Shown here piece after piece: positions 5,781 through 37,934 of a DNA stretch of 64,000 bases (the stretch's first letter is position 1; every line of letters begins with the position of its first letter). The notes under the pieces were generated by a model. The model saw only the letters and a list, made by a program, of their open reading frames with translations, was not told the origin of the DNA and did not search any database. Source of the stretch: Escherichia coli (GTDB taxonomy: Bacteria > Pseudomonadota > Gammaproteobacteria > Enterobacterales > Enterobacteriaceae); the NCBI RefSeq assembly GCF_050320075.1, contig NZ_CP190021.1. One strand, written 5' to 3'. The position numbers and the translations under genes were made by a program.

Positions 5781-5903
5781 GGATTATGTCCACGATAAGC
5801 ACCTGGGTCGATTCCTGGGAGGCGGCCATGAGGGTAGGGAAGCGCCGTCCCGTCAAGTCAGCGTAATGCTCTGCCAGTGTTACAACCAATTAACCAATTC
5901 TGA

Positions 5904-6719: not shown

Positions 6720-6806
6720 AACACCCCTTGTATTACTGTTTATGTAAGCAGACAGTTTTATTGTTCATGATGATATATTTTTATCTTGTGCAATGTAACA
6801 TCAGAG

Positions 6807-7626: not shown

Positions 7627-7695
7627 GGATTGAATATAACCGACGTGACTGTTACATTTAGGTGGCTAAACCCGTCAAGCCCTCAGGAGTGAATC

Positions 7696-9836: not shown

Positions 9837-10420
9837 TGCCCCGCCCCAAGCTCAAGTCCGATGACGAGGTACTCGAGGCCGCCACCGTAGTGCTGAAGCG
9901 TTGCGGTCCCATAGAGTTCACGCTCAGCGGAGTAGCAAAGGAGGTGGGGCTCTCCCGCGCAGCGTTAATCCAGCGCTTCACCAACCGCGATACGCTGCTG
10001 GTGAGGATGATGGAGCGCGGCGTCGAGCAGGTGCGGCATTACCTGAATGCGATACCGATAGGCGCAGGGCCGCAAGGGCTCTGGGAATTTTTGCAGGTGC
10101 TCGTTCGGAGCATGAACACTCGCAACGACTTCTCGGTGAACTATCTCATCTCCTGGTACGAGCTCCAGGTGCCGGAGCTACGCACGCTTGCGATCCAGCG
10201 GAACCGCGCGGTGGTGGAGGGGATCCGCAAGCGACTGCCCCCAGGTGCTCCTGCGGCAGCTGAGTTGCTCCTGCACTCGGTCATCGCTGGCGCGACGATG
10301 CAGTGGGCCGTCGATCCGGATGGTGAGCTAGCTGATCATGTGCTGGCTCAGATCGCTGCCATCCTGTGTTTAATGTTTCCCGAACACGACGATTTCCAAC
10401 TCCTCCAGGCACATGCGTAA
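9836..10420 (+). CDS. mphR(A): TetR-family repressor MphR(A)
   Basis: 194-aa ORF immediately after mrx. Confidence 0.9.
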   Translation: MPRPKLKSDDEVLEAATVVLKRCGPIEFTLSGVAKEVGLSRAALIQRFTNRDTLLVRMMERGVEQVRHYLNAIPIGAGPQGLWEFLQVLVRSMNTRNDFSVNYLISWYELQVPELRTLAIQRNRAVVEGIRKRLPPGAPAAAELLLHSVIAGATMQWAVDPDGELADHVLAQIAAILCLMFPEHDDFQLLQAHA

Positions 10421-10858
10421 ACGGAGGTGTGCAGAGTCCCTGCGGCAGGCGACGAACACGACCGTCGTCGATTAGTACCGGTACGGTCGGTGGTATCGAA
10501 GTCTTGATCACCACTCAGGTCTACGGCTTACAAATGGTGACCATCCCGATACTTGCGTCAGAGCACCGGGCCGATTCTTTGACAGTGAATCACTCCCGTA
10601 AGGTTGTGCCGGTGTGGGTGTCCCGGGTCGAGACGATACTCCGCCAATGCGCCCAGCAAACAACCTGGCCATCGCAGGTGGTGGGGAGCGGTGTGGCGGA
10701 TGAGTTGGACAAGTTGGTGTAGCAGCACGAGCACGGCGAGATAACATCGCAGGAGTTCGACATGCTCAAGAGACAGCTGATTGCGAATCGCGATGCAGAT
10801 TCATAACCCGATTGCGGGTTGGCTTCACTCCACCATCACCGAGCAGACTAGCACGGCG

Positions 10859-11297
10859 GGCTCTGTTGCAAAGATTGGCGGCAGTCAGAGGTAGGCTGTC
10901 GCTCTGCGCCGATCAGGCGGCTGCTGCGAAATGGTGGTTGAGCATGCCCATGGCCTCCGTCAGCGCCGAGGGCCCAATGCCAAAAGCTCTCTCCACAAGG
11001 CGCACCTCGCCCCTGATGCCGGGCTGCAGGCACCAGGGGCGAGCCTGTCCTTTGCGCAGGGCTCGCATGACTTCGAATCCCTTGATCGTGGCATAGGCCG
11101 TGGGGATCGATTTGAAACCGCGCACCGGCTTGATCAGTATCTTGAGCTTTCCGTGATCGGCCTCGATCACGTTATTGAGATACTTCACCTGCCGGTGGGC
11201 CGTCTCCCGGTCCAGCTTTCCTTCGCGCTTCAATTCGGTGATCGCTGCACCATAGCTCGGCGCTTTGTCGGTATTGAGCGTGGCAGGCTTTTCCCAG
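10859..11297 (-). mobile_element. IS6100 remnant (IR plus 3' part of tnpA), truncated by IS26 copy 3
   Basis: GGCTCTGTTGCAAAGATTGGCGGCAGTCAGAGG end at 10859; IS6-family tnpA C-terminal translation on the minus strand runs into the IS26 terminal repeat. Confidence 0.8.
10913..11297 (-). pseudogene. tnpA: IS6100 transposase 3' fragment
   Basis: Translation WEKPATLNTDKAPSYGAAITELKREGK... is IS6-family but distinct from IS26; the N-terminal 16 residues of the ORF are read from the IS26 end. Confidence 0.8.
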
Positions 11298-12117
11298 GGC
11301 ACTGTTGCAAAGTTAGCGATGAGGCAGCCTTTTGTCTTATTCAAAGGCCTTACATTTCAAAAACTCTGCTTACCAGGCGCATTTCGCCCAGGGGATCACC
11401 ATAATAAAATGCTGAGGCCTGGCCTTTGCGTAGTGCACGCATCACCTCAATACCTTTGATGGTGGCGTAAGCCGTCTTCATGGATTTAAATCCCAGCGTG
11501 GCGCCGATTATCCGTTTCAGTTTGCCATGATCGCATTCAATCACGTTGTTCCGGTACTTAATCTGTCGGTGTTCAACGTCAGACGGGCACCGGCCTTCGC
11601 GTTTGAGCAGAGCAAGCGCGCGACCATAGGCGGGCGCTTTATCCGTGTTGATGAATCGCGGGATCTGCCACTTCTTCACGTTGTTGAGGATTTTACCCAG
11701 AAACCGGTATGCAGCTTTGCTGTTACGACGGGAGGAGAGATAAAAATCGACAGTGCGGCCCCGGCTGTCGACGGCCCGGTACAGATACGCCCAGCGGCCA
11801 TTGACCTTCACGTAGGTTTCATCCATGTGCCACGGGCAAAGATCGGAAGGGTTACGCCAGTACCAGCGCAGCCGTTTTTCCATTTCAGGCGCATAACGCT
11901 GAACCCAGCGGTAAATCGTGGAGTGATCGACATTCACTCCGCGTTCAGCCAGCATCTCCTGCAGCTCACGGTAACTGATGCCGTATTTGCAGTACCAGCG
12001 TACGGCCCACAGAATGATGTCACGCTGAAAATGCCGGCCTTTGAATGGGTTCATGTGCAGCTCCATCAGCAAAAGGGGATGATAAGTTTATCACCACCGA
12101 CTATTTGCAACAGTGCC
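11298..12117 (-). mobile_element. IS26 copy 3 (inverted relative to copies 1 and 2)
   Basis: Terminal repeats at 11298 and 12117; tnpA on minus strand. Confidence 0.95.
11350..12072 (-). CDS. tnpA: IS26 transposase
   Basis: 240-aa ORF identical to copy 2. Confidence 0.95.
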   Translation of the reverse strand: MLMELHMNPFKGRHFQRDIILWAVRWYCKYGISYRELQEMLAERGVNVDHSTIYRWVQRYAPEMEKRLRWYWRNPSDLCPWHMDETYVKVNGRWAYLYRAVDSRGRTVDFYLSSRRNSKAAYRFLGKILNNVKKWQIPRFINTDKAPAYGRALALLKREGRCPSDVEHRQIKYRNNVIECDHGKLKRIIGATLGFKSMKTAYATIKGIEVMRALRKGQASAFYYGDPLGEMRLVSRVFEM

Positions 12118-15159: not shown

Positions 15160-15792
15160 ATGGCCTGGATAGTTGGTTTTATTTCTCAGAAAGGTGGTGT
15201 GGGCAAAAGCACTAAAGCGAGAGCGTTAGCGCGTGAAGCATCCGCCTGTGGTATCAAAACAAAATTAGCTGATCTCGACTTGGAACAGGCAACGAGTGCT
15301 GAGTGGCATCGTAGACGTCTGTCAGCTGGTTTGTCACCGGTTGCTTCCGTTGAAGTGTTTTCAACAGCAAAGCAGGCGATAGAATCTGCCGGCGATTTTG
15401 ACCTTCTGATTCTTGATGGCCCTGCTCGTGCAAGTAAAGGTACTTCAGAAATTGCTAAGGTCGCCGACCTTATCGTCCAGCCAACGGGAGCCTCCCTTGA
15501 CGATCTTGTCCCGGCAATTAAAGTTTTCAACGCGTTGGTAAAAGAAGGTATACCACGTTCAAAACTGGTCTTCGCTTTAAGCCGGGTAGGTACCGAAGCG
15601 GAAGAGCTGGATGCTCGTGCATATATCAGTGAAGCAGGTTATGAAACTTTATCTGGATGCCTTTTTGAGAAGCCAGCATACAGAAAAGCGATGAATTCAG
15701 GACTCGCTGTGACAGAAACACGTTATAAAGGTTTAAACGAGAGAGCTGATGAACTTATCCAGGCACTCATCGATAAGATTGGAGAAGAGTAA
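15160..15792 (+). CDS. parA: ParA-family Walker ATPase (small type Ib partition ATPase)
   Basis: 210-aa ORF with deviant Walker A KGGVGKST. Confidence 0.9.
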   Translation: MAWIVGFISQKGGVGKSTKARALAREASACGIKTKLADLDLEQATSAEWHRRRLSAGLSPVASVEVFSTAKQAIESAGDFDLLILDGPARASKGTSEIAKVADLIVQPTGASLDDLVPAIKVFNALVKEGIPRSKLVFALSRVGTEAEELDARAYISEAGYETLSGCLFEKPAYRKAMNSGLAVTETRYKGLNERADELIQALIDKIGEE

Positions 15793-16166
15793 TGGCTGAT
15801 GCGTCAAAACTTAGAACTAAAAGAACCCGTAGTGGGTTGGGGGTACCCCCGGGCCCCGACGAAGTGGCTACCAGCTTGAATGCGCCTGAGATAGCTCCGG
15901 CTGTCGCTGCCACTGATGTTCAGAGACAACAGGCAGACTCATCGCCAGTGCACCATGAGCCTGTGGTTACGCAAACAGTGACCGAGGTATATACCCGCCG
16001 CGATGGCCGTTCTGCCAGAAAAACAAACAGGACGCTGGCATTTGCAACACGTGTCACACCTGCTTTCGACCAAGAGATCCGGGATATCGCAGAGCGTGAG
16101 GGGTTGAAACTGGTGGAAGTTCTGGAAAAAGCAGTTGAGGCATATAAGGAAAAACAGGGCTATTAA
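15792..16166 (+). CDS. parB: Partition adaptor (ParG/ParB-like, probable RHH C-terminus)
   Basis: 124-aa ORF coupled to parA (stop/start overlap); flanked by iterons. Confidence 0.6.
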   Translation: MADASKLRTKRTRSGLGVPPGPDEVATSLNAPEIAPAVAATDVQRQQADSSPVHHEPVVTQTVTEVYTRRDGRSARKTNRTLAFATRVTPAFDQEIRDIAEREGLKLVEVLEKAVEAYKEKQGY

Positions 16167-16167
16167 T

Positions 16168-16270
16168 CCGGGATGCAGCAATCTTGCTGCATTCTTTTTT
16201 TGTGTGCAATCTTGCAGCAAGATTTATGCTAGATAAATGCTAGATTGCTGCAAGATAAATGATATAATGC
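16168..16270. repeat. Second cluster of TGCAATCTTGC-type iterons downstream of the par operon
   Basis: Read from sequence (GCAATCTTGCTGCA, TGCAATCTTGCAGCAAGATT, AGATTGCTGCAAGAT). Confidence 0.7.
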
Positions 16271-16274
16271 TCAA

Positions 16275-16400
16275 ATTGAGTAGTTAACTGCCCAAGTGAA
16301 GTACGCAGCTTGAGTACTTACCTGTGGTTTATGAGCGTATTTACTTAATGTGAGTAGTTATTGTGTAAAGATGAATACTCAAGTTGAGTATAAATGGAGA
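16275..16400. repeat. parC-like iterons (TGAGTAnTTA units) upstream of the actin-like partition ATPase
   Basis: About six copies of (T/G)TGAGTA(G/C)TTA read from sequence. Confidence 0.6.
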
Positions 16401-16404
16401 TGGT

Positions 16405-17379
16405 ATGAGAATTTTTTGCGATGATGGTTCTACAAATGTGAAACTTGCCTGGTTTGAAGGCAAGACGCTGAAAAGTGCGGTATCAGTGAACTCTTTTCGC
16501 CATAACTGGAAAGTCGAGGGCTTAGGCAGCAGTCGTACTTATAACTATCTGCTTGATGGCCGTAAATATACCTACGACCCGGTCAGCGAAGATGCGATCA
16601 GCACGACTCATATTGAGTATCAGTACTCTGATACAAATGTGTTGGCAGTTCACCACGCATTACTGAACAGTGGCATTGAACCCCAGGAGATCGATCTCAC
16701 CGTTACGTTACCTATCAGCGAGTTTTACACGGCCGACTGCCAGAAAAATACGCTTAACATTGAGAGAAAAATTCGCAACCTGATGCGAGAAGTCACCCTG
16801 AACAAAGGGGGAACTTTTACCATTAAAAGCGTTGAAGTGATGCCTGAATCACTCCCGGCTGTATTTACTCGCCTAGTTACTGACAACGTTGGTCAGTACG
16901 AAAAATCATTGGTTATCGATCTCGGTGGTACAACTCTGGATGTCGGGGTTATTGTTGGCCAGTTTGAGGATGTTTCGGCTGTACATGGTAATCCTGATAT
17001 TGGTGTATCAATGGTCACGAAAGCCACGCTCACTGCACTGAAAATGGCCAGCAGTGATACCAGTCCAATGATTGCTGACGAGTTGATCAAAAACAGGAAT
17101 AACCTGGATTTTGTGGGGCAGGTTGTAAATGAGGTCTCTAAACTAAATCTGGTGCTGGATACCATTGATACAGCGATAAATAAACTGGGCGAGCTAGTTG
17201 TTGATGATTTGCTGCAGTATCGAAACGTAAACCGCGTATATATTGTCGGTGGCGGGGCTGCACTCATTGCTGATGCTGTTCGTAAGGCATGGAACCACCT
17301 TGGCGAAAAGGTGGTTCTTATGGATGAACCTCAGACAGCGCTGGTCCAGGCTATTGCACGCTTCAAAGCGGAGGAGTAA
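16405..17379 (+). CDS. stbA: Actin-like segregation ATPase ParM/StbA
   Basis: MRIFCDDGSTNVKLAW N-terminus (ParM phosphate-1 motif), DLGGTTLD and VYIVGGGA motifs; ATG at 16405 preferred over the TTG at 16384 used by the track. Confidence 0.85.
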   Translation: MRIFCDDGSTNVKLAWFEGKTLKSAVSVNSFRHNWKVEGLGSSRTYNYLLDGRKYTYDPVSEDAISTTHIEYQYSDTNVLAVHHALLNSGIEPQEIDLTVTLPISEFYTADCQKNTLNIERKIRNLMREVTLNKGGTFTIKSVEVMPESLPAVFTRLVTDNVGQYEKSLVIDLGGTTLDVGVIVGQFEDVSAVHGNPDIGVSMVTKATLTALKMASSDTSPMIADELIKNRNNLDFVGQVVNEVSKLNLVLDTIDTAINKLGELVVDDLLQYRNVNRVYIVGGGAALIADAVRKAWNHLGEKVVLMDEPQTALVQAIARFKAEE

Positions 17380-19742: not shown

Positions 19743-20426
19743 ATGTCCCGTTTTGTCCTCGGTAACTGCATCGATGTTATGGCCCGTATCCCTGATAACG
19801 CCATTGATTTCATCCTCACCGACCCGCCATATCTCGTCGGTTTCCGTGACCGTTCCGGGCGCACCATCGCCGGCGATAAAACCGATGAGTGGCTGCAACC
19901 GGCCTGTAATGAAATGTTCCGCGTACTGAAAAAAGACGCGTTAATGGTGAGCTTCTACGGCTGGAACCGCGTCGATCGCTTTATGGCCGCCTGGAAAAAT
20001 GCGGGATTCAGCGTTGTTGGTCACCTGGTCTTCACCAAAAACTACACATCGAAGGCCGCATATGTGGGCTATCGCCACGAATGCGCCTACATCCTGGCAA
20101 AAGGCCGTCCACGTCTGCCACAAAACCCGCTGCCGGACGTGCTGGGCTGGAAATATTCGGGCAATCGCCATCACCCGACGGAAAAGCCCGTTACCAGCCT
20201 GCAACCGCTGATTGAGAACTTCACACACCCGAACGCAATTGTGCTGGACCCGTTTGCAGGCAGCGGCTCAACCTGCGTCGCCGCCCTCCAGTCCGGACGC
20301 CGGTATATCGGTATCGAGCTGCTTGAGCAGTATCACCGTGCCGGGCAGCAACGCCTTGCCGCCGTGCAACGGGCCATGCAGCAGGGGGCCGCGAATGATG
20401 ACTGGTTTATGCCGGAGGCTGCGTAA
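19743..20426 (+). CDS. Orphan beta-class DNA amino-methyltransferase (N6-adenine or N4-cytosine)
   Basis: Motif IV DPPY at residues 27-30 precedes motif I (LDPFAGSGST) near the C-terminus; no restriction endonuclease gene adjacent. Confidence 0.85.
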   Translation: MSRFVLGNCIDVMARIPDNAIDFILTDPPYLVGFRDRSGRTIAGDKTDEWLQPACNEMFRVLKKDALMVSFYGWNRVDRFMAAWKNAGFSVVGHLVFTKNYTSKAAYVGYRHECAYILAKGRPRLPQNPLPDVLGWKYSGNRHHPTEKPVTSLQPLIENFTHPNAIVLDPFAGSGSTCVAALQSGRRYIGIELLEQYHRAGQQRLAAVQRAMQQGAANDDWFMPEAA

Positions 20427-21974: not shown

Positions 21975-22315
21975 AAGGACGTCGCCGCCGGCTCCGCTTT
22001 ACCCGGCCATGCAGGGCATGGCCTTGTGGTTTTTCAGTTATGTGGCCGCCGTGTCGTGTGCGGGCTGTGCCGTGCCTCCATCTTAGCCGGGCTGGCAGGG
22101 ATGCAAGGGTACGCTTCGCCGCTGCGGTCACCCGGTCCCTCCTTCCCGTCTGCCGTGATTTTCCGGTCGTTCACCCGCTCAGATTTCGCGGTCTCACCCT
22201 CCAACTCCCGCCAGCCGTGTGCGTCAGGCTGCGGCTTCCCTTGCGCCCTGTGCATCCCCACCTTATCGCCCGGCTTTTATGGAGGCACGGCACCGCCCGG
22301 TGTCGCGGAATATGT
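21975..22315. repeat. Leading-region repeat family A, copy 1 (~340 bp), candidate ssDNA promoter (Frpo/ssi-like)
   Basis: Near-identical to 28922-29265; ends immediately upstream of the KlcA-like gene. Confidence 0.65.
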
Positions 22316-22335
22316 GAACAACGGAGGAAAACATC

Positions 22336-22761
22336 ATGCAATATGCGAAACCTGTCACTCTGAACGTTGAAGAGTGCGACCGTCTGTCTTTTCTGCCTTA
22401 CCTGTTTGGCCAGGATTTTCTGTATGCCGAAGCGTCTGTATACGCGCTGGCGAAACAAATGATGCCGGAATATGAAGGCGGATTCTGGCACTTCATCCGA
22501 CTGCCGGACGGTGGCGGTTACATGATGCCGGATGGCGACCGTTTTCACATGGTGAACGGTGCAAACTGGTTTGACCGTACCGTGAGTGCTGATGCCGCAG
22601 GCATCATCCTTACCTCCCTTGTGATTAACCGCCAGTTGTGGCTGTACCACGACAGCGGGGATGCAGGACTGACCCAGCTTTACCGGATGCGCGATGCGCA
22701 GTTGTGGCGTCACATCGAATTTCACCCTGAATGCAACGCGATTTACGCAGCACTGGACTGA
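22336..22761 (+). CDS. klcA: KlcA/ArdB-family anti-restriction protein
   Basis: 141-aa ORF with pattern LSFLPYLFG...[19 protein letters not shown]...[10 protein letters not shown] resembling RK2 KlcA from memory. Confidence 0.75.
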
Positions 22762-23230: not shown

Positions 23231-23418
23231 ATATCAGCACAGAAACCCGCGAAATTCTGCGCAATTACAAAGCCGTGATTAATGCGCGGCGTCGTGAAAT
23301 GGGGCAGAAACCGCTCACCACTGCGCAGATTGTTGATGAAATCTGCGATTTTGTGGCGAATCAGCAGGCGGTTTTCCTCGGTGGTCACTATATCCTTCAG
23401 GGCAGCAGAAACAGGTGA
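23227..23418 (+). CDS. Hypothetical small protein, translationally coupled (TCATGA overlap)
   Basis: 63-aa ORF. Confidence 0.4.
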   Translation: MNISTETREILRNYKAVINARRREMGQKPLTTAQIVDEICDFVANQQAVFLGGHYILQGSRNR

Positions 23419-23620
23419 TACAGGGCAGGCGGTGGAGGCCGCCTGTCAGCCCGCGCGAAAACCCCTGGCAGGCTGACGCCTGCCGGAAATGCGGGGTGCA
23501 GCGCCTGCGGCGCTGCCGGCCCGGCTTTCCGGTCAGAAGGTAGTGTATGGCTGTATGCAGGGAACAGGTGTGATATTCCGTGACACTGTCACCGTTTCTG
23601 GCTGTCTTTTATTGCGCCCA

Positions 23621-24125
23621 CTTCGGCTCCCGGCTGCCTGGCGGCATCCGGTCGTCAGGCCCGACTCCGACAGGCAGCTGCTGGCGCACCCGCCAGTCTC
23701 CGCCGAACCCGCTGGCGCGGTTTCGGGCTGCCGCTACGGTCCGATGCGTGAAAACCCGGCTTGCAGCGACCGTTCCGGTCGCGCCGCCCCTGTCGCGCCG
23801 TGACCTGCGCTCCCTGCACACCTGACGGTGTGTGAGGAAACTGCGCCTGATGGCGCAGCAGTCTTCCCTCCTGCCACCACCCCTGCGGCCTGTTTCCCGC
23901 TGTGGACTTTCCGGGGGGCAGACGTAACCCCCTCCCGTTCCATCTGTCCAGGGTGAGATGCACCGGCCACAAAATTTTTAGCCATGAACCCGGCTAAAAA
24001 TTTTGCGTCCGCCCCCGGACAGCTGTCCCGTGAGGCGGTAAACGGGCCCCCATCGGAAAGGTCCACTGCGGGGAGAAACCCCTGTGAAGTGGACGGCAGG
24101 AGGAGCTTTCGCTCCTCTGAAGGGG
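23621..24125. repeat. Leading-region repeat family B, copy 1 (~505 bp), candidate ssDNA promoter upstream of ssb
   Basis: Highly similar to 29964-30465 and partly to 33013-33345; contains a 14-bp perfect hairpin CAAAATTTTTAGCC-N8-GGCTAAAAATTTTG. Confidence 0.65.
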
Positions 24126-24186
24126 CACATGAACGTCCCGTCGCCGGTATCCGGTTTATCTCACATCTTTCAGTCAGGAGGTTCTT

Positions 24187-24714
24187 ATGAGTGCACGTGG
24201 TATCAACAAGGTCATCCTCGTCGGGCGTCTGGGCAATGATCCGGAAGTCCGTTACATCCCCAACGGGGGCGCAGTGGCAAACCTGCAGGTGGCCACATCA
24301 GAAAGCTGGCGTGACAAACAGACGGGGGAGATGCGGGAGCAGACGGAATGGCACCGCGTGGTGCTGTTCGGCAAGCTCGCGGAAGTGGCAGGTGAATATC
24401 TGCGCAAGGGTGCGCAGGTCTACATCGAAGGTCAGCTTCGCACCCGTAGCTGGGAAGATAACGGTATCACCCGTTACGTCACTGAAATTCTTGTTAAGAC
24501 CACGGGCACCGTGCAGATGCTGGGACGTGCACCACAGCAGAACGCTCAGGCGCAACCGAAGCCTCAGCAGAATGGGCAGCCACAGAGTGCTGACGCGACG
24601 AAAAAAGGTGGCGCGAAAACGAAAGGCCGTGGACGTAAGGCCGCGCAGCCAGAGCCTCAGCCGCAACCGCCGGAGGGGGAGGATTACGGGTTTTCAGACG
24701 ATATCCCGTTCTGA
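24187..24714 (+). CDS. ssb: Single-stranded DNA-binding protein
   Basis: 175-aa [36 protein letters not shown]... with Q/P-rich linker and acidic DDIPF tail. Confidence 0.95.
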
Positions 24715-24765
24715 CTGGCCTGACTGTGATAACCGCCCCGCCCTGCGCGGGGCATCACCGGAGAG

Positions 24766-25005
24766 ATGAGGATGAGCGAATATTTCAGAATACTTCAGGG
24801 ACTGCCGGACGGCTCCTTTACCCGCGAACAGGCGGAAGCCGTTGCCGCACAGTACCGGAACGTCTTTATCGAGGATGATCAGGGAACGCATTTTCGCCTG
24901 GTTGTCCGTCAGGATGGCACGTTGATCTGGCGCTCCTGGAATTTTGAGGACTGTGCCGGGTACTGGATGAACCAGTACATCAGGGATTTCGGGATTCTTA
25001 AGTAA
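24766..25005 (+). CDS. Hypothetical small protein
   Basis: 79-aa ORF between ssb and the ParB-like gene. Confidence 0.5.
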
Positions 25006-25057
25006 GAGAGGTGCCGGACGCGCGAACGTCCGGCAGGACATAAGCAATTATAAGGGG

Positions 25058-27022
25058 ATGATTATGCCTGTAACGAAGTGTGAACCAGAAACCACCCGCA
25101 AAGCAAGCCGTAAATCTGTAAAAACGCAGGAAACTGTCCTGTCTGCCCTGCTGGCGCAGACGGAGGAAGTGAGCGTGCCGCTGGCCTCGCTGATTAAATC
25201 ACCGCTGAATGTGCGCACGGTGCCGTATTCTGCGGAGTCCGTCAGCGAACTGGCGGAGTCCATTAAGGGCGTCGGACTGCTGCAGAATCTGGTCGTGCAT
25301 ACCCTGCCTGGTGACCGTTACGGTGTCGCCGCAGGTGGTCGCCGACTGGCTGCACTCAACATGCTGGCAGAGCGTGGCATCATTCCGGCTGACTGGCCTG
25401 TACGCGTGAAGGTTATTCCGCAGGAGCTGGCGACGGCTGCATCAATGACTGAAAACGGTCATCGTCGGGATATGCACCCTGCCGAACAGATTGCCGGATT
25501 CCGTGCGATGGCGCAGGAAGGCAAAACGCCTGCACAAATCGGTGATTTGCTGGGCTATTCGCCCCGCCACGTTCAGCGAATGCTGAAACTGGCAGACCTT
25601 GCGCCTGTCATCCTCGATGCGCTGGCAGAAGACCGCATCACCACAGAGCACTGTCAGGCGCTGGCGCTGGAGAACGACACCGCGCGTCAGGTGCAGGTGT
25701 TTGAAGCCGCCTGCCAGTCGGGATGGGGCGGTAAACCGGAAGTACAGACCATTCGTCGTCTGGTGACCGAAAGTGAAGTGGCGGTGGCAGGTAACAGTAA
25801 ATTCCGCTTCGTGGGGGCTGATGCTTTCTCACCTGACGAACTGCGTACTGATTTGTTCAGCGATGACGGGGACGGTTATGTCGACCGCGTGGCGCTCGAT
25901 GCTGCCCTGCTGGAAAAACTCCAGGCTGTCGCTGAACACCTTCGGGAAGCCGAAGGCTGGGAATGGTGCGCCGGACGCATGGAGCCTGTCGGTGAGTGCC
26001 GTGAGGATGCCGGAACATACCGCTGTCTGCCGGAGCCGGAAGCGGTGCTGACGGAGGCAGAAGAAGAACGCCTGAACGAACTGATGACGCGTTACGACGC
26101 GCTGGAAAACCAGTGTGAGGAATCCGACCTGCTGGAAGCAGAAATGAAGCTGATGCGCTGCATGGCGAAGGTCAGGGCGTGGACGCCGGAGATGCGTGCC
26201 GGAAGTGGCGTGGTGGTGTCCTGGCGTTATGGAAACGTATGTGTCCAGCGTGGTGTGCAGTTGCGCAGTGAAGATGACGCGACTGATGACGCTGACCGCA
26301 CGGAACAGGTGCAGGAGAAAGCGTCAGTGGAGGAAATCAGTCTGCCGTTGCTGACGAAAATGTCTTCCGAACGCACGCTGGCAGTCCAGGCAGCACTGAT
26401 GCAGCAACCGGACAAATCTCTGGCACTGCTGGCATGGACGCTCTGCCTGAATGTGTTTGACAGCGGAGCGTACAGTAAACCAGCACAAATCAGCCTGGAA
26501 TGTAAACATTATTCGCTGACCAGCGATGCGCCGTCAGGGAAGGAAGGTGCCGCATTCCTGGCGCTGATGGCAGAAAAAGCCCGTCTTGCGGCCCTGTTAC
26601 CGGAGGGATGGTCACGGGACATGACGACGTTCCTGTCACTCAGTCAGGAGGTGCTGTTATCCCTGCTCAGTTTCTGCACCGCATGCAGCCTTAACGGTGT
26701 CCAGACCCGCGAGTGTGGTCGCACGTCACGCAGTCCGCTTGACTCACTGGAGAGCGCCATCGGTTTTCACATGCGCGACTGGTGGCAGCCGACGAAAGCA
26801 AACTTCTTCGGACACCTGAAAAAGCCGCAGATTATCGCAGCCCTGAATGATGCCGGACTGTCCGGTGCCGCACGGGACGCAGAGAAGATGAAGAAAGGCG
26901 ATGCCGCTGAACATGCAGAGTTCCATATGAAAGACAACCGCTGGGTGCCTGGCTGGATGTGTTCACCACGTCCACAGACGGATGCCACTGAACGCGCCGA
27001 TAACCTGGCTGATGCCGCCTGA
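25058..27022 (+). CDS. ParB/Srx-like N-terminal domain protein of the leading region
   Basis: 654-aa ORF; N-terminal region has a ParB-box-like GGRRLAA motif and an HTH-like segment. Confidence 0.75.
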   Translation: MIMPVTKCEPETTRKASRKSVKTQETVLSALLAQTEEVSVPLASLIKSPLNVRTVPYSAESVSELAESIKGVGLLQNLVVHTLPGDRYGVAAGGRRLAALNMLAERGIIPADWPVRVKVIPQELATAASMTENGHRRDMHPAEQIAGFRAMAQEGKTPAQIGDLLGYSPRHVQRMLKLADLAPVILDALAEDRITTEHCQALALENDTARQVQVFEAACQSGWGGKPEVQTIRRLVTESEVAVAGNSKFRFVGADAFSPDELRTDLFSDDGDGYVDRVALDAALLEKLQAVAEHLREAEGWEWCAGRMEPVGECREDAGTYRCLPEPEAVLTEAEEERLNELMTRYDALENQCEESDLLEAEMKLMRCMAKVRAWTPEMRAGSGVVVSWRYGNVCVQRGVQLRSEDDATDDADRTEQVQEKASVEEISLPLLTKMSSERTLAVQAALMQQPDKSLALLAWTLCLNVFDSGAYSKPAQISLECKHYSLTSDAPSGKEGAAFLALMAEKARLAALLPEGWSRDMTTFLSLSQEVLLSLLSFCTACSLNGVQTRECGRTSRSPLDSLESAIGFHMRDWWQPTKANFFGHLKKPQIIAALNDAGLSGAARDAEKMKKGDAAEHAEFHMKDNRWVPGWMCSPRPQTDATERADNLADAA

Positions 27023-27073
27023 TGAACAACCACACCGCCCCGCCGGAGACGGGGCGGCAGAGGGAGAAATACG

Positions 27074-27511
27074 ATGATGAATACCGAACTGACACTGAAT
27101 GCCCTGCAGTCCATGAATGCCCAGGAATATGAAGAAATCCGTGCTGCGGGAAGCGATATGCGCCGTAATCTCACTCACGAGGTGATGCGTAAAGTGGACG
27201 CACCGGCTAACTGGATGATGAACGGAGAGTATGGCAGCGAGTTCGGGGGCTTTTTCCCCGTCCAGGTTCGTTTCACGCCAGCCCACGAACGTTTCCACCT
27301 GGCATTATGTTCGCCGGGAGACGTCTCTCAGCTCTGGATGCTGGTTCTGGTGAATGGTGGTGGACAGCCTTTCGCCGTCGTTCAGGTGCAACATATCTTC
27401 ACGCCTGCCGCGATCAGTCACACGCTGGCGCTTGCCGCGACACTGGATGCGCAGGGATACAGTGTTAACGACATCATCCATATCCTGATGGCAGAAGGAG
27501 GTCAGGCATGA
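27074..27511 (+). CDS. psiB: Plasmid SOS inhibition protein PsiB
   Basis: 145-aa ORF recognised from memory; immediately followed by psiA. Confidence 0.9.
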
Positions 27512-28227
27512 GCGCACGTTCACGGGCACTGATCCCCCTCAGCGCAGAACAACAGGCCGCCATGCAGGCGGTGGCTGTCACAGAACAACGTCGTCGTCAG
27601 GGACGCACACTTTCAGCATGGCCTTATGCCACCGCTTTCTTTCGCTGCCTGAATGGCAGTCGCCGGATTTCGCTGACCGATCTCCGCTTTTTTGCCCCTG
27701 CGCTGACGAAGGAGGAATTTCATGGCAACCGTCTCCTGTGGCTGGCTGCCGTGGATAAACTGATTGAAAGTTTTGGGGAAGTCTGTGTTCTTCCCCTGCC
27801 ATCCGATGCGGGGCACCGTCTGTTCCCGTCCGTGCCTTTTCGTGAAGGTGAGCGTCGTCGTCAGAAAACCACGCTGACAGAGCAGAAATACAGCCGCCAG
27901 CGGGAACGTGAGGCAGAACGACGGGAACTGGAATACCAGACATGTTTTGCTCAGGCGCAGATTGACCTTGCGTTTCATACTCCCGCCACGGTCGGAAGCT
28001 GGTTGTCCCGCTGGTCTGGTGTTGTTGAGGAGCATGATCTGGAAACGATTTTCTGGGGGTGGTGCGGGCGTTTTCCATCACTGTCATCATTTGACCGGTT
28101 TTTCTGGCAGGAGGAACCACTCTGGCGGCTGATTTTTGAAGCCGGTGAGGCCGGTCGTGGTGCACCGGTACAGGTACGTGCACTTGAGCAGTGGATGATC
28201 CCGAACAAGCTGGAGAACGTAATATGA
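27508..28227 (+). CDS. psiA: Plasmid SOS inhibition protein PsiA
   Basis: 239-aa ORF overlapping the psiB stop (ATGA). Confidence 0.9.
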
Positions 28228-28820
28228 TGAAATCAGACGAAAAATACCAGGTTCCCGCGTGGATGCGACCTCTGTTGCCGTTGCTCTGCAACACCGGGGG
28301 GAACGATCCGGAAGAACTGCTGAATGATACAGAAACCACTGCCAGTGCGAATGTTGTCCGTTATGTACTGATAGTTGCTGTGCGGTCGCAGGTTGATCTG
28401 CTGCAGCTTCTGTACAGGAAAGGGCTGTTGCGCACAGAGATACCAGGTGGCTTTTCACCGGAAGAAGCGCAGGCACTCCTGGATAATCTGGTGCGCAGCC
28501 ATATCAGCAAGGCGCTGTCGGGCGAGCGAATGGCAGCCCGTGACAGAAATGCCGATCTGGCCTGGATTGGACAGCAACTGGTCGATGACGCCTGGTTTGT
28601 CCGTGCCACACTGGAAGCGCATGGGATGAGCGTCGGAAATGAGAGTCCCCCTGCTCCGCCGGAGACAATGCCGGACATACAGACACGGGAACTGGTGATG
28701 TTGATCAAGCGACTGGCATCATCGCTGAAAGCGGTGAAACCGGACAGTTGTGTGGTGCGTGAAGCGCAGGACTGGCTGCGCGACAGAAAACTTGTGGATA
28801 TCACAGATATTCTCCGGTGA
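28224..28820 (+). CDS. Hypothetical protein translationally coupled to psiA
   Basis: ATGATGA overlap with psiA stop; 198 aa from ATG 28224 (track ORF starts at 28191). Confidence 0.55.
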   Translation: MMKSDEKYQVPAWMRPLLPLLCNTGGNDPEELLNDTETTASANVVRYVLIVAVRSQVDLLQLLYRKGLLRTEIPGGFSPEEAQALLDNLVRSHISKALSGERMAARDRNADLAWIGQQLVDDAWFVRATLEAHGMSVGNESPPAPPETMPDIQTRELVMLIKRLASSLKAVKPDSCVVREAQDWLRDRKLVDITDILR

Positions 28821-28921
28821 ACCAGGCATGTATATTTTACGCAGGGACACGCCGATCATGATCGTTTCATATCAGGGGTGGTCTGGAGGTCATGCGGCGT
28901 GTCCTCTGCACTCGCCGGAAT

Positions 28922-29265
28922 AAGGAAGTCGCCGGCGGCTCCGCTTTTACCCGGCCATGCGGGGCATGGCCTTGTGGGGTTTCAGCTCTGTGGCCTCAGC
29001 GTCGTGTGCGGGCTGTGCCGTGCCTCCATCTTAGCCGGGCTGGCAGGGATGCAAGGGTACGCTTCGCCGCTGCGGTCACCCGGTCCCTCCTTCCCGTCTG
29101 CCGTGATTTTCCGGTCGTTCGTCCGCTCAGGTTTCGCGGCCTCACCCTGCAACTCCCGTCAGCCGTGTGCGTCAGGCTGCGGCTTCCCTTGCGCCCCTGC
29201 ATCCCCGCCTTATCGCCCGGCTTTTATGGAGGCACGGCACCGCCCGGTGTCGCAGAACATGTGAC
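28922..29265. repeat. Leading-region repeat family A, copy 2, candidate ssDNA promoter upstream of ardA
   Basis: Near-identical to 21975-22315. Confidence 0.65.
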
Positions 29266-29281
29266 TATGGAGGATTCGGGA

Positions 29282-29782
29282 ATGTCTGTTGTTGCACCTG
29301 CTGTATACGTTGGAACCTGGCACAAATACAACTGTGGAAGCATCGCCGGACGCTGGTTTGACCTGACCACGTTTGATGATGAGCGCGACTTTTTCGCCGC
29401 CTGCCGTGCTCTTCACCAGGATGAAGCCGATCCTGAACTGATGTTTCAGGATTATGAGGGATTCCCGGGGAATATGGCCTCTGAATGCCATATCAACTGG
29501 GCCTGGGTTGAAGGCTTCCGCCTGGCACGGGATGAAGGCTGCGAAGAGGCTTATCGTCTCTGGGTGGAGGATACCGGTGAGACGGATTTTGACACCTTCC
29601 GCGATGCCTGGTGGGGCGAGGCTGACAGTGAGGAGGCTTTTGCGGTTGAGTTCGCCAGTGATACCGGCCTGCTGGCTGACGTGCCGGAGACGGTGGCGCT
29701 CTATTTTGACTATGAGGCGTATGCGCGGGATTTATTCCTGGACTCCTTCACCTTTATTGACGGTCATGTGTTCCGTCGGTGA
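29282..29782 (+). CDS. ardA: Anti-restriction protein ArdA (type I R-M inhibitor)
   Basis: 166-aa acidic protein [38 protein letters not shown]...; the track ORF 28892-29782 extends upstream through the repeat. Confidence 0.95.
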
Positions 29783-29963
29783 TTTACTCCCCCGCTCCGG
29801 CGGGGGTATGGCCTGCCAGGCCGCCGGAAAACCCTGGCAGGCTTACGCCTGCCTGAAATGCAGGAGGGCCGCGCCTGCGGCGCTGCCCTTCCTGCCCGTC
29901 ATGGTGTGAGGCATTTTTCTGTTATGTCGTTTCTGTTGTTCTGATTTCCGGAGGCGGGGACAC

Positions 29964-30465
29964 CTTCGGCTCCCGGCTGCCTGGCGGCATCCGGTCGTCA
30001 GGCCCGACTCCGACAGGCAGCTGCTGGCGCACCCGCCAGTCTCCGCCGAACCCGCTGGCGCGGTTTCGGGCTGCCGCTACGGTCCGATGTCTGAAAAACC
30101 AGGCTTGCAGCGACCGTTCCGGTCGCGCCGCCCCTGTCGCGCCGGAAACGGCGCTCCCTGCACACCTGACGGTGTGTAAGGCCACTGCGCCTGATGGCGC
30201 AGTCAACCCTTCCGCCGCCACCCCTGCGGCCTGTTTCCCGCTGTGGACTTTCCGGGGGCTGGAGTAACCACATCCCGTTTCAGCAGTCCAGGGGAAGATA
30301 TACCGTCCACAAAATTTTTAGCCATAAACCCGGCAAAAAATTTTGCGTCCGCCCCCGGACAGCTGCCCCGTGACGTGGTGACGGACGCCCCATCGGAAAG
30401 GTCCACTGCGGGGAGAAACCCCGAAGAAGTGGACGGCAGAAGGGGCTTTCGCCCCTCCGGGGAGC
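29964..30465. repeat. Leading-region repeat family B, copy 2
   Basis: Aligned by eye to copy 1 over ~500 bp. Confidence 0.65.
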
Positions 30466-31305: not shown

Positions 31306-31369
31306 TTAACCCTTGCCGTCTGCCTGTGCAGGCGGCAGGATACGTTCAGACATCTCACCAGGAGGAACC

Positions 31370-32308
31370 GTGAGTCAGAAGAAAACCACCACGACGCCCA
31401 CGCCGCATGATGCCGCGTTCCGGTCGTTCCTGGCGAATCCCGACGTCGCCAGAGATTTTCTGGAACTGCATCTTCCGGCGGAGTACCGGCAGTTGTGCGA
31501 CCTGTCCACGCTGAAGCTGGAACCCGCCACCTTTGTTGAGCCGGACCTGCATCAGTACGCCAGCGATATCCTCTGGAGTGTGAAAACCACCGGGGGTGAA
31601 GATGGCTATGTTTATACGCTCATCGAGCACCAGAGCACCGAAAATCTGTACATGCCTTTCCGCATGTTACGTTACAGTGTGGCGGCGATGCAGAGACATC
31701 TGGAGCAGCACAAAACGTTGCCACTGGTGATTCCTGTACTGTTCTATCATGGTGAGCGCAGCCCGTACCCGTACAGCATGAACTGGCTGGACTGTTTTGA
31801 GAATCCGGCACTTGCGGCTAAAATATACACAAAGCCGTTTCCGCTGGTTGATATCACTGTCGTTGATGACAATGAAATCATGAACCATCGCCGGATGGCC
31901 GCACTGACGCTGCTGATGAAGCATATCCGCCATCGTGACATGATGGAGCTGCTGGACAAACTCCCGCAGGTCATGGTGGAAATTTCAGACGAGCAGGTGC
32001 GTGTTCTGATTCATTACATCGTTAACGCAGGGGACTCTGTATCACCGGAATTTATGCGGGCGCTGGCTGAGCGTCTGCCGCAGCATGAGGATAAACTGAT
32101 GACTATCGCAGAACGTCTTGAGCAAAAAGGTCGCCAGGAGGGCAGGATGGAAGGACGCATGGAAGGACGCATGGAAGGACGCATGGAAGGAGCGCTTGAA
32201 AAAGCCCTGGCTATTGCGTGCCAGCTTCAGAAAATGGGGATGACGCCGGAGCAGATTAAGCAGGCTACCGGACTTTCCGATGACGAACTGAAGAAAATCA
32301 CTCACTGA
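31370..32308 (+). CDS. Rpn (YhgA-like) family PD-(D/E)xK nuclease/recombination-promoting protein
   Basis: GTG at 31370 with GGAGG RBS; N-terminal TPHDAAFRSFL, core YVYTLIEHQSTEN...FRMLRYSVAAMQRHL, recognised from memory as the YhgA/Rpn family. Confidence 0.75.
   Translation: MSQKKTTTTPTPHDAAFRSFLANPDVARDFLELHLPAEYRQLCDLSTLKLEPATFVEPDLHQYASDILWSVKTTGGEDGYVYTLIEHQSTENLYMPFRMLRYSVAAMQRHLEQHKTLPLVIPVLFYHGERSPYPYSMNWLDCFENPALAAKIYTKPFPLVDITVVDDNEIMNHRRMAALTLLMKHIRHRDMMELLDKLPQVMVEISDEQVRVLIHYIVNAGDSVSPEFMRALAERLPQHEDKLMTIAERLEQKGRQEGRMEGRMEGRMEGRMEGALEKALAIACQLQKMGMTPEQIKQATGLSDDELKKITH
32141..32188. repeat. In-frame 12-bp tandem repeat (GGACGCATGGAA x ~4) encoding (EGRM)n inside the Rpn-like gene
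   Basis: Read directly from sequence. Confidence 0.9.
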
Positions 32309-32314
32309 GTAAAC

Positions 32315-32345
32315 ATCACAGCCCGGCAAAATGCCGGGCTTTTTT
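32315..32345 (+). terminator. Rho-independent terminator after the Rpn-like gene
   Basis: AGCCCGGCA-AAA-TGCCGGGCT stem followed by TTTTTT. Confidence 0.7.
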
Positions 32346-32369
32346 GTCAGCAGGAGCAGAGCAAATAGC

Positions 32370-32528
32370 ATGACGATTGCAGAACGTCTTATTCAAAAAG
32401 GCGCACTTGAAGTGGCGCGGGAAATAGCCTGCCGGCTGCGGGATATGGGCTGGACGCCGGAACGGATTCAGGAGGCAACCGGACTTTCCGGTGAAGAACT
32501 GAAAAAGCTGTTTCCTGATGAGCAGTAG
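32370..32528 (+). CDS. Small protein duplicating the C-terminal module of the Rpn-like protein (RpnS-like candidate)
   Basis: 52-aa ORF MTIAERLIQKGALEVAREIACRLRDMGWTPERIQEATGLSGEELKKLF..., parallel to the Rpn tail MTIAERLEQKG...ALAIACQLQKMGMTPEQIKQATGLSDDELKK. Confidence 0.55.
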   Translation: MTIAERLIQKGALEVAREIACRLRDMGWTPERIQEATGLSGEELKKLFPDEQ

Positions 32529-33012: not shown

Positions 33013-33345
33013 AGTCGCGCCGTATGCGGCGCTCCCTGCACACCTTACGGTGTGTAAGGCCACTGCGCCTGATGGCGCAGCTGTCTCTGCCTGTCTGCCG
33101 CCGCACTGCGGCCTGTTCTCCGCAGACGGACTTTCCGGGGGTACATACATGACCACATCCCGTTTCAGTCGTCCAGGGGGGAGATGTACCAGCCACAAAA
33201 CTTTTTGCCGCAGGCGTCAAAAACTTTTGCGTCTGCCCCCGGACAACTGCCCCGTGACGTGGTGAGCGTCCCCCGTCGGAAAGGTCCACTGCGGGGAAAT
33301 CCCCGAAGACCCGGACGGCAGAAGGAGCTTCGCTCCTCCGGGAAA
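33013..33345. repeat. Leading-region repeat family B, copy 3 (partial, 3' two-thirds)
   Basis: Aligns to 23792-24125 of copy 1, including a degenerate version of the hairpin. Confidence 0.6.
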
Positions 33346-35234: not shown

Positions 35235-37934
35235 GTGAATGCAGTCATTCCGAAAAAGAGAAGGGACGGCAAGTCTTCGTTCGAAGACCTGGTATCCTAC
35301 GTCTCTGTCCGGGATGACATGACCGATGAGGAACTGGATTTATCTTCTTCTTCGCAGGCTGAACAACCGCACCGAAGCCGTTTCAGTCGCCTTGTTGATT
35401 ATGCGACACGTCTTCGAAATGAGTCATTCGTGGCGCTGGTTGATGTCATGAAGGACGGCTGCGAATGGGTCAACTTTTATGGTGTCACCTGCTTTCATAA
35501 CTGTACTTCTCTTGAAACTGCCGCTGCAGATATGGAGTACATTGCCCGGCAGGCACACTATGCAAAAGATGACACTGACCCTGTTTTTCACTACATCCTT
35601 TCCTGGCAGTCACATGAAAGCCCGCGTCCGGAACAGATTTATGACAGTGTACGTCATACGCTGAAATCACTCGGCCTTGCCGACCATCAGTATGTCTCTG
35701 CCGTGCATACTGATACAGATAATCTGCACGTCCATGTGGCTGTTAACCGGGTACACCCTGAAACGGGTTATCTGAACCGGTTATCATGGAGTCAGGAAAA
35801 ACTCAGTCGTGCCTGCCGTGAGCTTGAACTGAAGCATGGTTTTGCTCCGGATAACGGTTGCTGGGTCCATGCGCCGGGAAATCGTATCGTTCGCAAAACT
35901 GCCGTTGAACGTGATCGCCAGAACGCCTGGACACGCGGAAAAAAACAAACTTTTCGTGAGTATGTTGCGCAGACAGCGGTCGCTGGTTTACGCAGTGAAC
36001 CTGTACATGACTGGTTATCCCTGCATCGTCGTCTTGCGGAAGATGGTCTGTACCTGTCTCAGATGGACGGAAAATTTCTGGTGATGGATGGCTGGGATCG
36101 CAACAGGGAAGGTGTACAGCTTGACTCGTTTGGTCCCTCCTGGTGTGCAGAAAAACTCATGAAAAAAATGGGTGACTACACGCCAGTGCCAAAAGACATT
36201 TTCAGCCAGGTGGAAGCACCAGGACGCTATAATCCGGACTTCATTGCAGCTGATGTTCGCCCGGAAAAAATCGCTGAAACAGAAAGTCTGCAGCAGTATG
36301 CCTGTCGTCATCTTGGAGAACGTCTGCCGGAAATGGCACGGGAAGGACGGCTGGAAAACTGCCTGGCTATTCACCGCACACTGGCTGAAGCGGGATTATG
36401 GATGCGTGTTCAGCATGGTCACCTGGTTATCTGTGACGGTTATGATCATAACCAGACTCCCGTTCGTGCTGACAGCGTATGGTCACTGCTGACGCTCGAC
36501 AATGTGAATCAACTCGATGGTGGCTGGCAGCCTGTACCAACAGATATTTTCCGCCAGGTTACGCCAACAGAACGCTTCCGTGGTCGTCGTATGGAGAGCT
36601 GTCCTGCGACCGATAAAGAATGGCACCGTATGCGTACAGGTACGGGGCCGCAGGGGGCTATCAAACGCGAACTGTTTTCTGACAAAGAAAGTCTGTGGGG
36701 ATACAGCATCAGCCATTGTAGCCCTCAGATTGAAGAAATGATCACACAGGGTGAGTTTACCTGGCAGCGTTGTCATGAGTTGTTTGCACAACAGGGACTG
36801 ATGCTACAGAAACAACATCACGGGCTTGTTGTCGTTGATGCTTTTAATCATGAGCAAACGCCGGTGAAAGCCAGCAGCATTCATCCTGATCTGACACTGG
36901 GGCGTGCGGAGCCACAGGCCGGACCTTTTGTGAGTGCTCCAGCAGATTTGTTTGACAGGGTGCAACCTGAAAATCGCTATAACCCGGAGCTGGCTGTCAG
37001 TGACAGGTACGGGGTCAGCAGTAAACGTGACCCAATGCTGCGCCGGCAGCGACGTGAAGCCAGGGCTGAGGCCCGTGCTGACCTGCGTGCCCGCTATCTG
37101 GCATGGCGTGAACAATGGCGTAAACCGGATCTGCGTTATGGGGAACGTTGTCGGGAAATTCATCAGGCATGCCGTCTGCGGAAGTCACACATTCGTGCGC
37201 AGTACGATGATCCGGCATTACGTAAGCTGCATTATCACATTGCAGAAGTTCAGCGAATGCAGGCATTGATCAGGCTGAAAGAAGACATCAGGGATGAGCG
37301 ACAGAAACTTATTGCTGACGGGAAATGGTATCCACCCTCTTACCGTCAGTGGGTCGAAATTCAGGCTGCTCAGGGAGACAGGGCTGCTGTATCGCAGTTG
37401 AGAGGCTGGGATTATCGCGATCGCCGTAAAGACAAGTCACGCACAACGACGACAGACCGCTGTGTCGTGCTTTGTGAACCGGGCGGAACGCCGGTATACG
37501 GTAATACCGGTGATCTCGAGGCCCGTCTGCAGAAGAACGGGAGTGTTCGTTTCCGTGACCGTCGGACGGGAGAGTTTGTCTGTACGGATTATGGTGACAG
37601 AGTTGTTTTCCGTAATCACCATGACCGCAATGCGCTGGCAGATAAACTGGATTTGATTGCACCGGTATTATTCGGGCGTGATCCACGCATGGGGTTTGAA
37701 CCAGAAGGAAACGACAAACAATTTAACCAGGTCTTTGCTGAAATGGTTGCCTGGCATAATGTGACAGGCCGTACCGGTCACGAAGACTACAGGATTACGC
37801 GACCGGACGTGGATCATCACCGTGAAGGAAGTGAACGCTACTACCGCGATTATATCGCGGCGAACAGCAACGATGACGCATCACTGCCTCCGCCGGAGCA
37901 GGATAAACGCTGGGAACCGCCTTCTCCAGGTTAA
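35235..37934 (+). CDS. nikB: Relaxase NikB (MOBP family)
   Basis: 899-aa ORF immediately after nikA; histidine triad region HTDTDNLHVHVAVNRVH. Confidence 0.9.
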   Translation: MNAVIPKKRRDGKSSFEDLVSYVSVRDDMTDEELDLSSSSQAEQPHRSRFSRLVDYATRLRNESFVALVDVMKDGCEWVNFYGVTCFHNCTSLETAAADMEYIARQAHYAKDDTDPVFHYILSWQSHESPRPEQIYDSVRHTLKSLGLADHQYVSAVHTDTDNLHVHVAVNRVHPETGYLNRLSWSQEKLSRACRELELKHGFAPDNGCWVHAPGNRIVRKTAVERDRQNAWTRGKKQTFREYVAQTAVAGLRSEPVHDWLSLHRRLAEDGLYLSQMDGKFLVMDGWDRNREGVQLDSFGPSWCAEKLMKKMGDYTPVPKDIFSQVEAPGRYNPDFIAADVRPEKIAETESLQQYACRHLGERLPEMAREGRLENCLAIHRTLAEAGLWMRVQHGHLVICDGYDHNQTPVRADSVWSLLTLDNVNQLDGGWQPVPTDIFRQVTPTERFRGRRMESCPATDKEWHRMRTGTGPQGAIKRELFSDKESLWGYSISHCSPQIEEMITQGEFTWQRCHELFAQQGLMLQKQHHGLVVVDAFNHEQTPVKASSIHPDLTLGRAEPQAGPFVSAPADLFDRVQPENRYNPELAVSDRYGVSSKRDPMLRRQRREARAEARADLRARYLAWREQWRKPDLRYGERCREIHQACRLRKSHIRAQYDDPALRKLHYHIAEVQRMQALIRLKEDIRDERQKLIADGKWYPPSYRQWVEIQAAQGDRAAVSQLRGWDYRDRRKDKSRTTTTDRCVVLCEPGGTPVYGNTGDLEARLQKNGSVRFRDRRTGEFVCTDYGDRVVFRNHHDRNALADKLDLIAPVLFGRDPRMGFEPEGNDKQFNQVFAEMVAWHNVTGRTGHEDYRITRPDVDHHREGSERYYRDYIAANSNDDASLPPPEQDKRWEPPSPG

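Follow-up and report, generated by a model that had tools for sequence, protein, structure and literature searches.

The ParB-like gene upstream of psiB in an IncI1 leading region: almost certainly the orthologue of F-plasmid yfjB/herB

What does a large ParB-like protein do in the leading region of a conjugative plasmid, beside SOS-inhibition genes and with no ParA next to it? The question was raised by the open reading frame at 25058..27022 (+ strand) in the 64,000-nucleotide stretch of Escherichia coli DNA analysed here (the window). Positions 12115-41021 of the window matched the IncI-gamma/K1 plasmid pND11_107 at 99.7% identity, and the remainder matched IncI1-type plasmids. The operon reads ssb, DUF905, ParB-like gene, psiB, psiA, and all genes around lie on the + strand: the plasmid ssb as the operon's first gene (24187..24714; NCBIfam PRK13732, 385.8 bits, cut-off 265); the DUF905 gene, called ykfF in IncI and yfjA in F, directly upstream of the ParB-like gene (24766..25005; RefSeq on near-identical DNA; phrog_8779, E 1e-35); the SOS inhibitor gene psiB (27074..27511; PRK13701, 264 bits, cut-off 100); and psiA (27508..28227; PRK13704, 376 bits, cut-off 243). 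An orphan DNA methyltransferase gene (19743-20426, +, above the curated NCBIfam cut-off) and a klcA/ardB-like antirestriction gene (22336-22761, +) precede the operon and ardA (~29280-29782, +) follows it. Downstream of the ParB-like gene, nikA (34805/34892-35224) and nikB (35235-37934) together mark oriT.

Within the IncI1 leading region the ParB-like gene lies ~7.8 kb from nikA/oriT, some 8 kb in from the plasmid end that enters the recipient first. The position claimed in the initial annotation, in the leading region beside SOS-inhibition genes, was thereby confirmed, psiB and psiA being followed downstream by nikA and nikB; the further claim of a place between ssb and psiB held for psiB, which adjoins, and failed for ssb, which is separated by DUF905/ykfF. 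No ParA adjoins the gene, its flanking genes being DUF905 and psiB, just as the initial annotation had it. The nearest ParA-family ORF was found 9.3 kb upstream (15160-15792) with its own small partner ORF (15160-16166 together), and a ParM gene ends at 17379, the ParA-type and ParM systems occupying 15160-17379, 8-10 kb upstream. Without an adjoining ParA, the gene was therefore treated as an orphan ParB homologue of the leading region, its large product having the ParB/Srx fold.

The six-frame ORF list gave 654 aa for 25058..27022, counted from the first ATG, as described earlier. Two in-frame ATGs are present, 25058 and 25064, two codons apart; a Shine-Dalgarno-like AAGGGG (25052-25057) ends directly before the first and 6 nt ahead of the second, the RefSeq start on 100%-identical DNA is 25064, and the F-plasmid gene has only one ATG here, the counterpart of 25064. 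The second ATG was preferred on account of this spacing, the RefSeq start and the F gene; the product is likely to be of 652 aa (CDS 25064..27022, +, stop codon included), not 654, and residue numbers below are those of the 652-aa product.

The protein was 93% identical to F YfjB (604 of 652 residues, 0 gaps; UniProt Q9S4W2); with the R64 copy the identity was 96% (623/652; record NC_005014, which comes without the original gene names). D1-D4, the four domains of HerB, are all colinear, with per-domain identities to F HerB of 91.7-95.6%; the criterion of family membership in the HerB preprint of July 2026 (PMC13370423; bioRxiv 10.64898/2026.07.07.736705) is at least 80% coverage of each of D1-D4. 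Ten of the 48 differences from F YfjB fall in the disordered first 23 residues, D3 is the most diverged domain, and one substitution, H553R, sits in a protruding loop of D4. The dN/dS ratio against F was 0.18 overall, 0.08 for D1 and 0.11 for D4, by which the gene is under purifying selection. On these identities the gene is almost certainly the IncI1 orthologue of F YfjB/HerB. It has been named yfjB (F), yfhA (IncI), parB2 (pED208), parB_2 (pMS7163B) and, in the preprint, HerB; that the window protein is also the yfhA product of the PNAS study (PMC10104558) and the ParB2 of pED208 we infer from gene order and description.

In PLSDB, megablast with the gene gave at least 5,000 records at ≥80% identity, of which 4,977 of those listed cover ≥80% of the gene; among the matches listed, all but 25 of 5,000 were at ≥90% identity, and the carriers were mostly conjugative plasmids of Escherichia, Salmonella, Klebsiella and Shigella. 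The tblastn search with the window protein likewise gave at least 5,000 records with copies at ≥80% identity. The family, called widespread in the initial annotation, indeed occurs on no fewer than 5,000 sequenced plasmids of enterobacteria, among which resistance plasmids are numerous. The window gene encodes a nearly identical copy of a protein that is very common, has been named and was recently characterised. As such it is already known, and the window adds no new biology.

D1, the ParB N-terminal CTP-binding domain (residues 24-136; 25133..25471, +), contains Pfam ParB_N (residues 43-133, E 3e-7), Box II, GGRRLAA, at residues 91-97 with R94, and Box III, MTENG, at residues 128-132 with E130. 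D2, a ParB-type helix-turn-helix DNA-binding domain (residues 137-235; 25472..25768, +), contains Pfam HTH_ParB (residues 138-224, E 5e-8) and R168, R172 and K175. The NCBIfam ParB domain model TIGR00180 gave 64.3 bits (cut-off 58.45); solved ParB/Spo0J/Noc structures aligned over residues ~28-220 with E down to 3e-17, the best being Spo0J 1vz0 (E 3e-17, residues 28-205). The ParB-like N-terminal domain with a GGRRLAA motif, for which a profile search without any ParB-like domain had been named as the refuting outcome, was thus recovered by Pfam, NCBIfam and solved structures. D3 (residues 238-417; 25775..26314, +) is a mixed alpha/beta domain without known relatives; D4 (residues 418-636; 26315..26971, +) is a helical module, 94.5% identical to that of F, with the conserved motifs SERTLAVQAAL and KMKKGDAA. 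GGRRLAA, MTENG, R94, E130, R168, R172 and K175 are the same as in HerB, and all residues mutated in the preprint are identical in the window protein. The structure models made here were AF2 monomers.

The phrog_7783 profile spans residues 37-644, and no relatives of the D3-D4 half were found outside the family. A query of D3-D4 only (window 25775-27019), searched against 1.84 billion representatives, matched 2,130 clusters (50% identity) with E ≤ 1e-3, of which 1,055 had E ≤ 1e-10; full-length matches were nearly all of 600-700 aa, the aligned part starting at residue ~205-260. By this length and match start, the four-domain architecture is the unit of conservation. By the same search the family exceeds the 429 plasmid and phage homologues of the preprint. 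In a 65-sequence alignment reaching down to 27% identity, G91, R94, E130, N131, Q209, L264, A440, K610, W627 and P629 were invariant; these positions make up the CTP pocket and sites in D3 and D4. Membership of PRTRC_parB/PRK13832 (NCBIfam) was considered and rejected, the matches covering the N-terminal ~160 residues only, far under the cut-offs, and appearing also in nine distant homologues.

On either side of the operon lie long direct repeats, which fall into two families. Family B consists of 23456-24117, before ssb, of 29825-30457 and of a further copy, diverged to a greater extent, at 33014-33342. Patches of it are 78-94% identical to F elements sitting where Frpo2 and Frpo1 are described, and its transferred (-) strand folds far better than shuffled sequences (z -7.5 for 23456-24117, also -7.2; for comparison, -5.6 for the F Frpo2 region). 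Family A consists of 21998-22317, before the klcA-like gene, and 28946-29264, before ardA. The leading genes are all oriented toward oriT, which is the orientation that the entering strand requires if it is to act as template for leading-region transcription. Consensus scans of 23400-29300, which are weak evidence, gave no sigma-70-like promoter or terminator on the + strand; this result fits a single ssi3-driven unit that is silent when double-stranded. Conserved hairpins, which may serve in processing or stability, flank the ParB-like gene.

In the IncI1 plasmid pESBL, six operons stand behind single-stranded DNA promoters, ssi1-3 among them, ssb and psiB being named; the class 1 promoters share homology with Frpo, their 5' ends having been mapped, and some leading-region genes rise by up to ~500-fold within 15 min (PMC12672017). 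Family B corresponds to the published class-1 promoters ssi1-3, and family A to the published class 2. The element at 23456..24117 (annotated on +), of ColIb-P9 ssi3/F Frpo2 type, would work as a promoter on the strand that is transferred, which is the window's - strand, as may be expected from the promoter function described for its relatives (PMC9849209, PMC12672017). Visual inspection of the folded class-1 element allowed no confident assignment of -35/-10 boxes; its identity relies on Frpo/ssi homology and the published 5' RACE. F YfjB was undetectable in donors and appeared in transconjugants before the plasmid was double-stranded, together with Ssb, YfjA and PsiB; ssb and yfjA, of the operon that includes yfjB, were shown to need the single-strand promoter Frpo2 (PMC9849209).

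F HerB is a homodimer; D1-D2 was crystallised with CTPgammaS and Mg2+, the pocket including Box II G91-A97 and E130, and in the 3.6 A cryo-EM structure D4 forms a domain-swapped dimer that gives a V-shaped core, D4 being a new C-terminal module for dimerisation and nucleoid association (PMC13370423). Nucleoid-associated foci required R94, E130, the HTH residues R168/R172/K175 and D4; ChIP gave 156 chromosomal peaks without a motif and without enrichment of F, ectopic HerB altered ~870 genes, and the ChIP peaks and expression changes overlapped non-randomly (PMC13370423). Deletion of herB left F positioning and short-term transfer unchanged, raised the acquisition cost by ~10%, and the deleted plasmid lost ground over repeated transfer cycles (PMC13370423). 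This functional model comes from one preprint that is not peer-reviewed; its experiments used the F allele and K-12 as the E. coli host, mostly with ectopic expression, and the fitness effect is modest. The description of such proteins as functionally unresolved is consequently out of date, an orthologue of 93% identity having been characterised in structure and function, and CTP-dependent clamping, one of the roles offered, is supported by the CTPgammaS-bound crystal and the D4 dimer of that orthologue. The deletion experiment that had been suggested (conjugation frequency, SOS induction) is already published: deletion in pED208 or F left both unchanged (PMC8406263, PMC9849209, PMC13370423).

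Our preferred reading, which we hold to be probable, is that the window protein would act as a ParB-like CTP-binding clamp, made in a burst from single-stranded DNA and loaded on the chromosome without parS, where it would remodel the host and lower the cost of acquisition. Going by the F orthologue, herB would be silent in established donors. It would be transcribed from the single strand within minutes of the latter's arrival and be switched off once the complementary strand is made. Dimerisation through D4, again as in the F orthologue, would give a V-shaped clamp; foci would form on the recipient chromosome and not on the plasmid, without parS, and would need CTP binding (R94, E130) and the HTH (R168, R172, K175). 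A few generations of shifted host transcription and metabolism might then lower the cost of a freshly acquired plasmid. Through this family a plasmid that has just arrived appears able to retune its host, and a partition protein the window protein is not.

Deletions spanning psiA and psiB have arisen in parallel in IncI1 plasmids after transfer to human isolates. Parallel loss-of-function mutations in yfhA or ssi3 were found in clinical IncI1/Igamma ESBL plasmids (PNAS 2023; p1ESBL/p15ESBL; PMC10104558); a clean yfhA deletion raised the transfer rate in one clinical strain (strain 15) and had no effect in another, and what yfhA did in trans varied with the state of ykfF, the gene next to it (PMC10104558). 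In pMS7163B, a plasmid of the I-complex, the gene was dispensable for maintenance by TraDIS, its dN/dS was 0.116, and overexpression in cis was costly, for which the authors propose interference with parAB (PMC10286972). A ParB2-Cre fusion of pED208 was translocated via the T4SS (PMC8406263). The clinical yfhA deletion and the in cis cost fit poorly with an always beneficial role, and the size, even the sign, of the effect on spread probably depends on the host strain. The F data, by which HerB aids spread, are at odds with those from IncI1, where a plasmid without yfhA can be transferred at a higher rate in some clinical strains.

Since the yfhA deletion was strain-specific and the in trans effect dependent on ykfF, the net effect is taken to be host-dependent, which makes a host-conflict or anti-defence factor the main rival. 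Such a factor would neutralise or evade a recipient system, for instance a defence system or a resident element that K-12 lacks; what ectopic expression does to the transcriptome would be secondary. The gene is indeed set among anti-restriction and anti-SOS genes (klcA/ardB-like, ardA, psiB, ssb, the orphan methylase), distant homologues adjoin ArdC, ArdA, methylases and PsiA/B, the deletion effect varies strongly with the clinical host (PMC10104558), and deletions leave the transfer frequency unchanged in laboratory strains. No defence system countered by the protein is known, however; a search for known defence proteins with PADLOC gave marginal, N-terminal matches only (PD-Lambda-5_A, E ~0.005), by which it is not a known defence protein, transfer of strain 15 went up on deletion and not down, and HerB ChIP peaks overlap non-randomly with expression changes (PMC13370423). 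We regard this explanation as unlikely.

The name under which the protein is annotated, 'ParB/RepB/Spo0J family partition protein', and its score above the TIGR00180 cut-off would rather suggest a further ParB for plasmid partition or centromere binding, or else a protein that modulates the partition system which the plasmid already has, and the parAB interference proposed for pMS7163B (PMC10286972) points the same way. Against it stand the separate ParA-type and ParM systems at 15160-17379 with no ParA adjoining, the TraDIS result on maintenance (PMC10286972), the unchanged positioning of F and its lack of ChIP enrichment (PMC13370423), and the absence of YfjB from established donors (PMC9849209). 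The C-terminal half is moreover unrelated to canonical ParB C-terminal domains, and a search of 24100-28300 for parS-like palindromes gave two weak, imperfect ones of 12-14 nt, nothing convincing. The partition reading is largely refuted and we give it very little credence. Least credible of all is a ParB-like nuclease or a coat protecting the incoming single strand; nuclease activity and DNA protection had been among the roles offered in the initial annotation, and nothing in support of either was found in this analysis.

With F HerB the window protein shares the four domains, the CTP-binding and HTH residues, the ssb-DUF905-X-psiB-psiA operon and the type of single-strand promoter upstream; the plasmid backbone, in contrast, is unrelated (MOBP/MPF_I in the window plasmid, MOBF/MPF_F in F), and the promoter element matches Frpo2 in conserved patches only. 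The IncI YfhA (R64, p1ESBL/p15ESBL) is the same gene in the same ssi3 operon; the host-specific rise in transfer, the in cis cost and the T4SS translocation reported in the YfhA/ParB_2/ParB2 studies are left unexplained by the HerB model. Canonical ParB proteins (Spo0J, SopB) share the HTH and the ParB N-terminal domain, including its GxxR and ENxxR motifs, but end in a short C-terminal dimerisation domain, which the window protein lacks; it has instead a C-terminal half of ~415 aa of another type, no ParA partner and no convincing parS-like palindrome in 24100-28300. Judged from the orthologues, the HerB family differs further in being dispensable for maintenance and transiently expressed after transfer.

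KorB of RK2 belongs to the ParB family, clamps DNA in a CTP-dependent manner and regulates transcription; VirB of Shigella pINV is, like KorB, a transcription regulator of this kind. The sites of action of both are defined operators or parS-like sequences on the plasmid that encodes them, whereas HerB acts on the host chromosome without a motif, and neither has a counterpart of the D3-D4 of the HerB family. Membership of the KorB family was rejected, the sequence relation to KorB being marginal (8qa8, E 0.03) and no palindromic operator being found in 24100-28300; the likeness lies in mode of action, not in family.

Gene contexts of the family were sampled with a distant homologue as query. 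DUF905 stood directly upstream of a 38%-identical metagenomic homologue, and PsiB then PsiA downstream of one at 40%; a Klebsiella IncFII plasmid kept ssb-DUF905-X-psiB-psiA, and on Serratia and Providencia plasmids PsiB and/or PsiA followed the homologue. A 29% homologue was near ArdC and a 31% homologue near a T4SS coupling protein. From these contexts it appears that the family keeps company with sets of early-entry genes associated with transfer. On the non-mobilizable plasmid pMT of Y. pestis the order is ardA-DUF905-X and then an IS100-family gene, psiB/psiA being absent downstream of the HerB-like gene. The adjacency of DUF905 and HerB was kept in homologues of 33-38% identity. The frequency of this neighbour raises the idea, which we rate as rather improbable, that the DUF905 protein (YkfF/YfjA, 24766-25005) may be a loading or specificity partner of HerB. 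Such a partner would account for the failure to find a parS-like motif and for the differing effect of yfhA in trans with wild-type and knockout plasmids (truncated ykfF), and might add to the host-dependent outcome. Within the HerB family, DUF905 is a frequent, not a universal, neighbour.

A long repeat was found in three copies, at 23456-24117, 29825-30457 and 33014-33342, segments of which are 82-98% identical; sequence comparison revealed partial homology of all three to Frpo1 and Frpo2, the single-strand promoters of the F plasmid, and the - strand of this repeat family is predicted to adopt a very stable fold (z about -7). In the order given, the copies match the published class-1 ssDNA promoters ssi3, ssi2 and ssi1 of IncI1 plasmids. 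The two copies of a second repeat family (ca. 320 nt; 94-96% identity) are located directly 5' of antirestriction genes, namely at 21998-22317 before a klcA/ardB-like gene and at 28946-29264 before ardA, and correspond to the 'class 2' ssDNA promoters reported in 2025 for the IncI1 plasmid pESBL.

The DUF905 gene (ykfF in IncI, yfjA in F; 24766-25005 in the window) was found directly 5' of HerB-like genes down to 33-38% identity (distant loci L003, L010 and L011). In one of these cases, the non-mobilizable Yersinia pestis plasmid pMT, the order ardA-DUF905-HerB-like gene is kept and is followed downstream by an IS100-family gene. The short intergenic spacers flanking the HerB-like gene of the window are occupied by GC-rich stem-loops without T-run, one per side: 25012-25035 (9-bp stem) and 27035-27057 (8-bp stem). 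Both stems are conserved in the F plasmid, the loop of the first one being different; the elements may serve in mRNA processing or stability, or may be single-strand DNA structures. The best match of the region to a sigma-70-like consensus (GTTACA-16-TATAAT, 10/12) was located at 25074-25047 on the - strand, antisense to the HerB-like gene and overlapping its start; it may be due to chance.

The end of psiA is overlapped by an ORF of 209 aa (28191-28820; RefSeq: hypothetical protein of 198 aa), the C-terminal part of which weakly matched functionally uncharacterised PHROG families; the gene is also present at homologous positions in plasmids R64 and pND11_107 (IncI-gamma/K1). The plasmid has maintenance genes of its own at 15160-17379, apart from the ParB-like gene of the leading region: a ParA-family ATPase gene with a partner ORF of 124 aa, and a ParM-type gene. 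At 31313-32308, an Rpn-family recombination-promoting nuclease gene carries a C-terminal GRMEGRME repeat run, and a direct repeat (32187-32506, 75% identical) was found nearby. The cargo at 1-12100, which differs from pND11_107, includes a block of 65% GC at 8001-10000; records matching the cargo bear annotations for macrolide resistance (mph(A)/mrx(A)) and for integron and IS genes.
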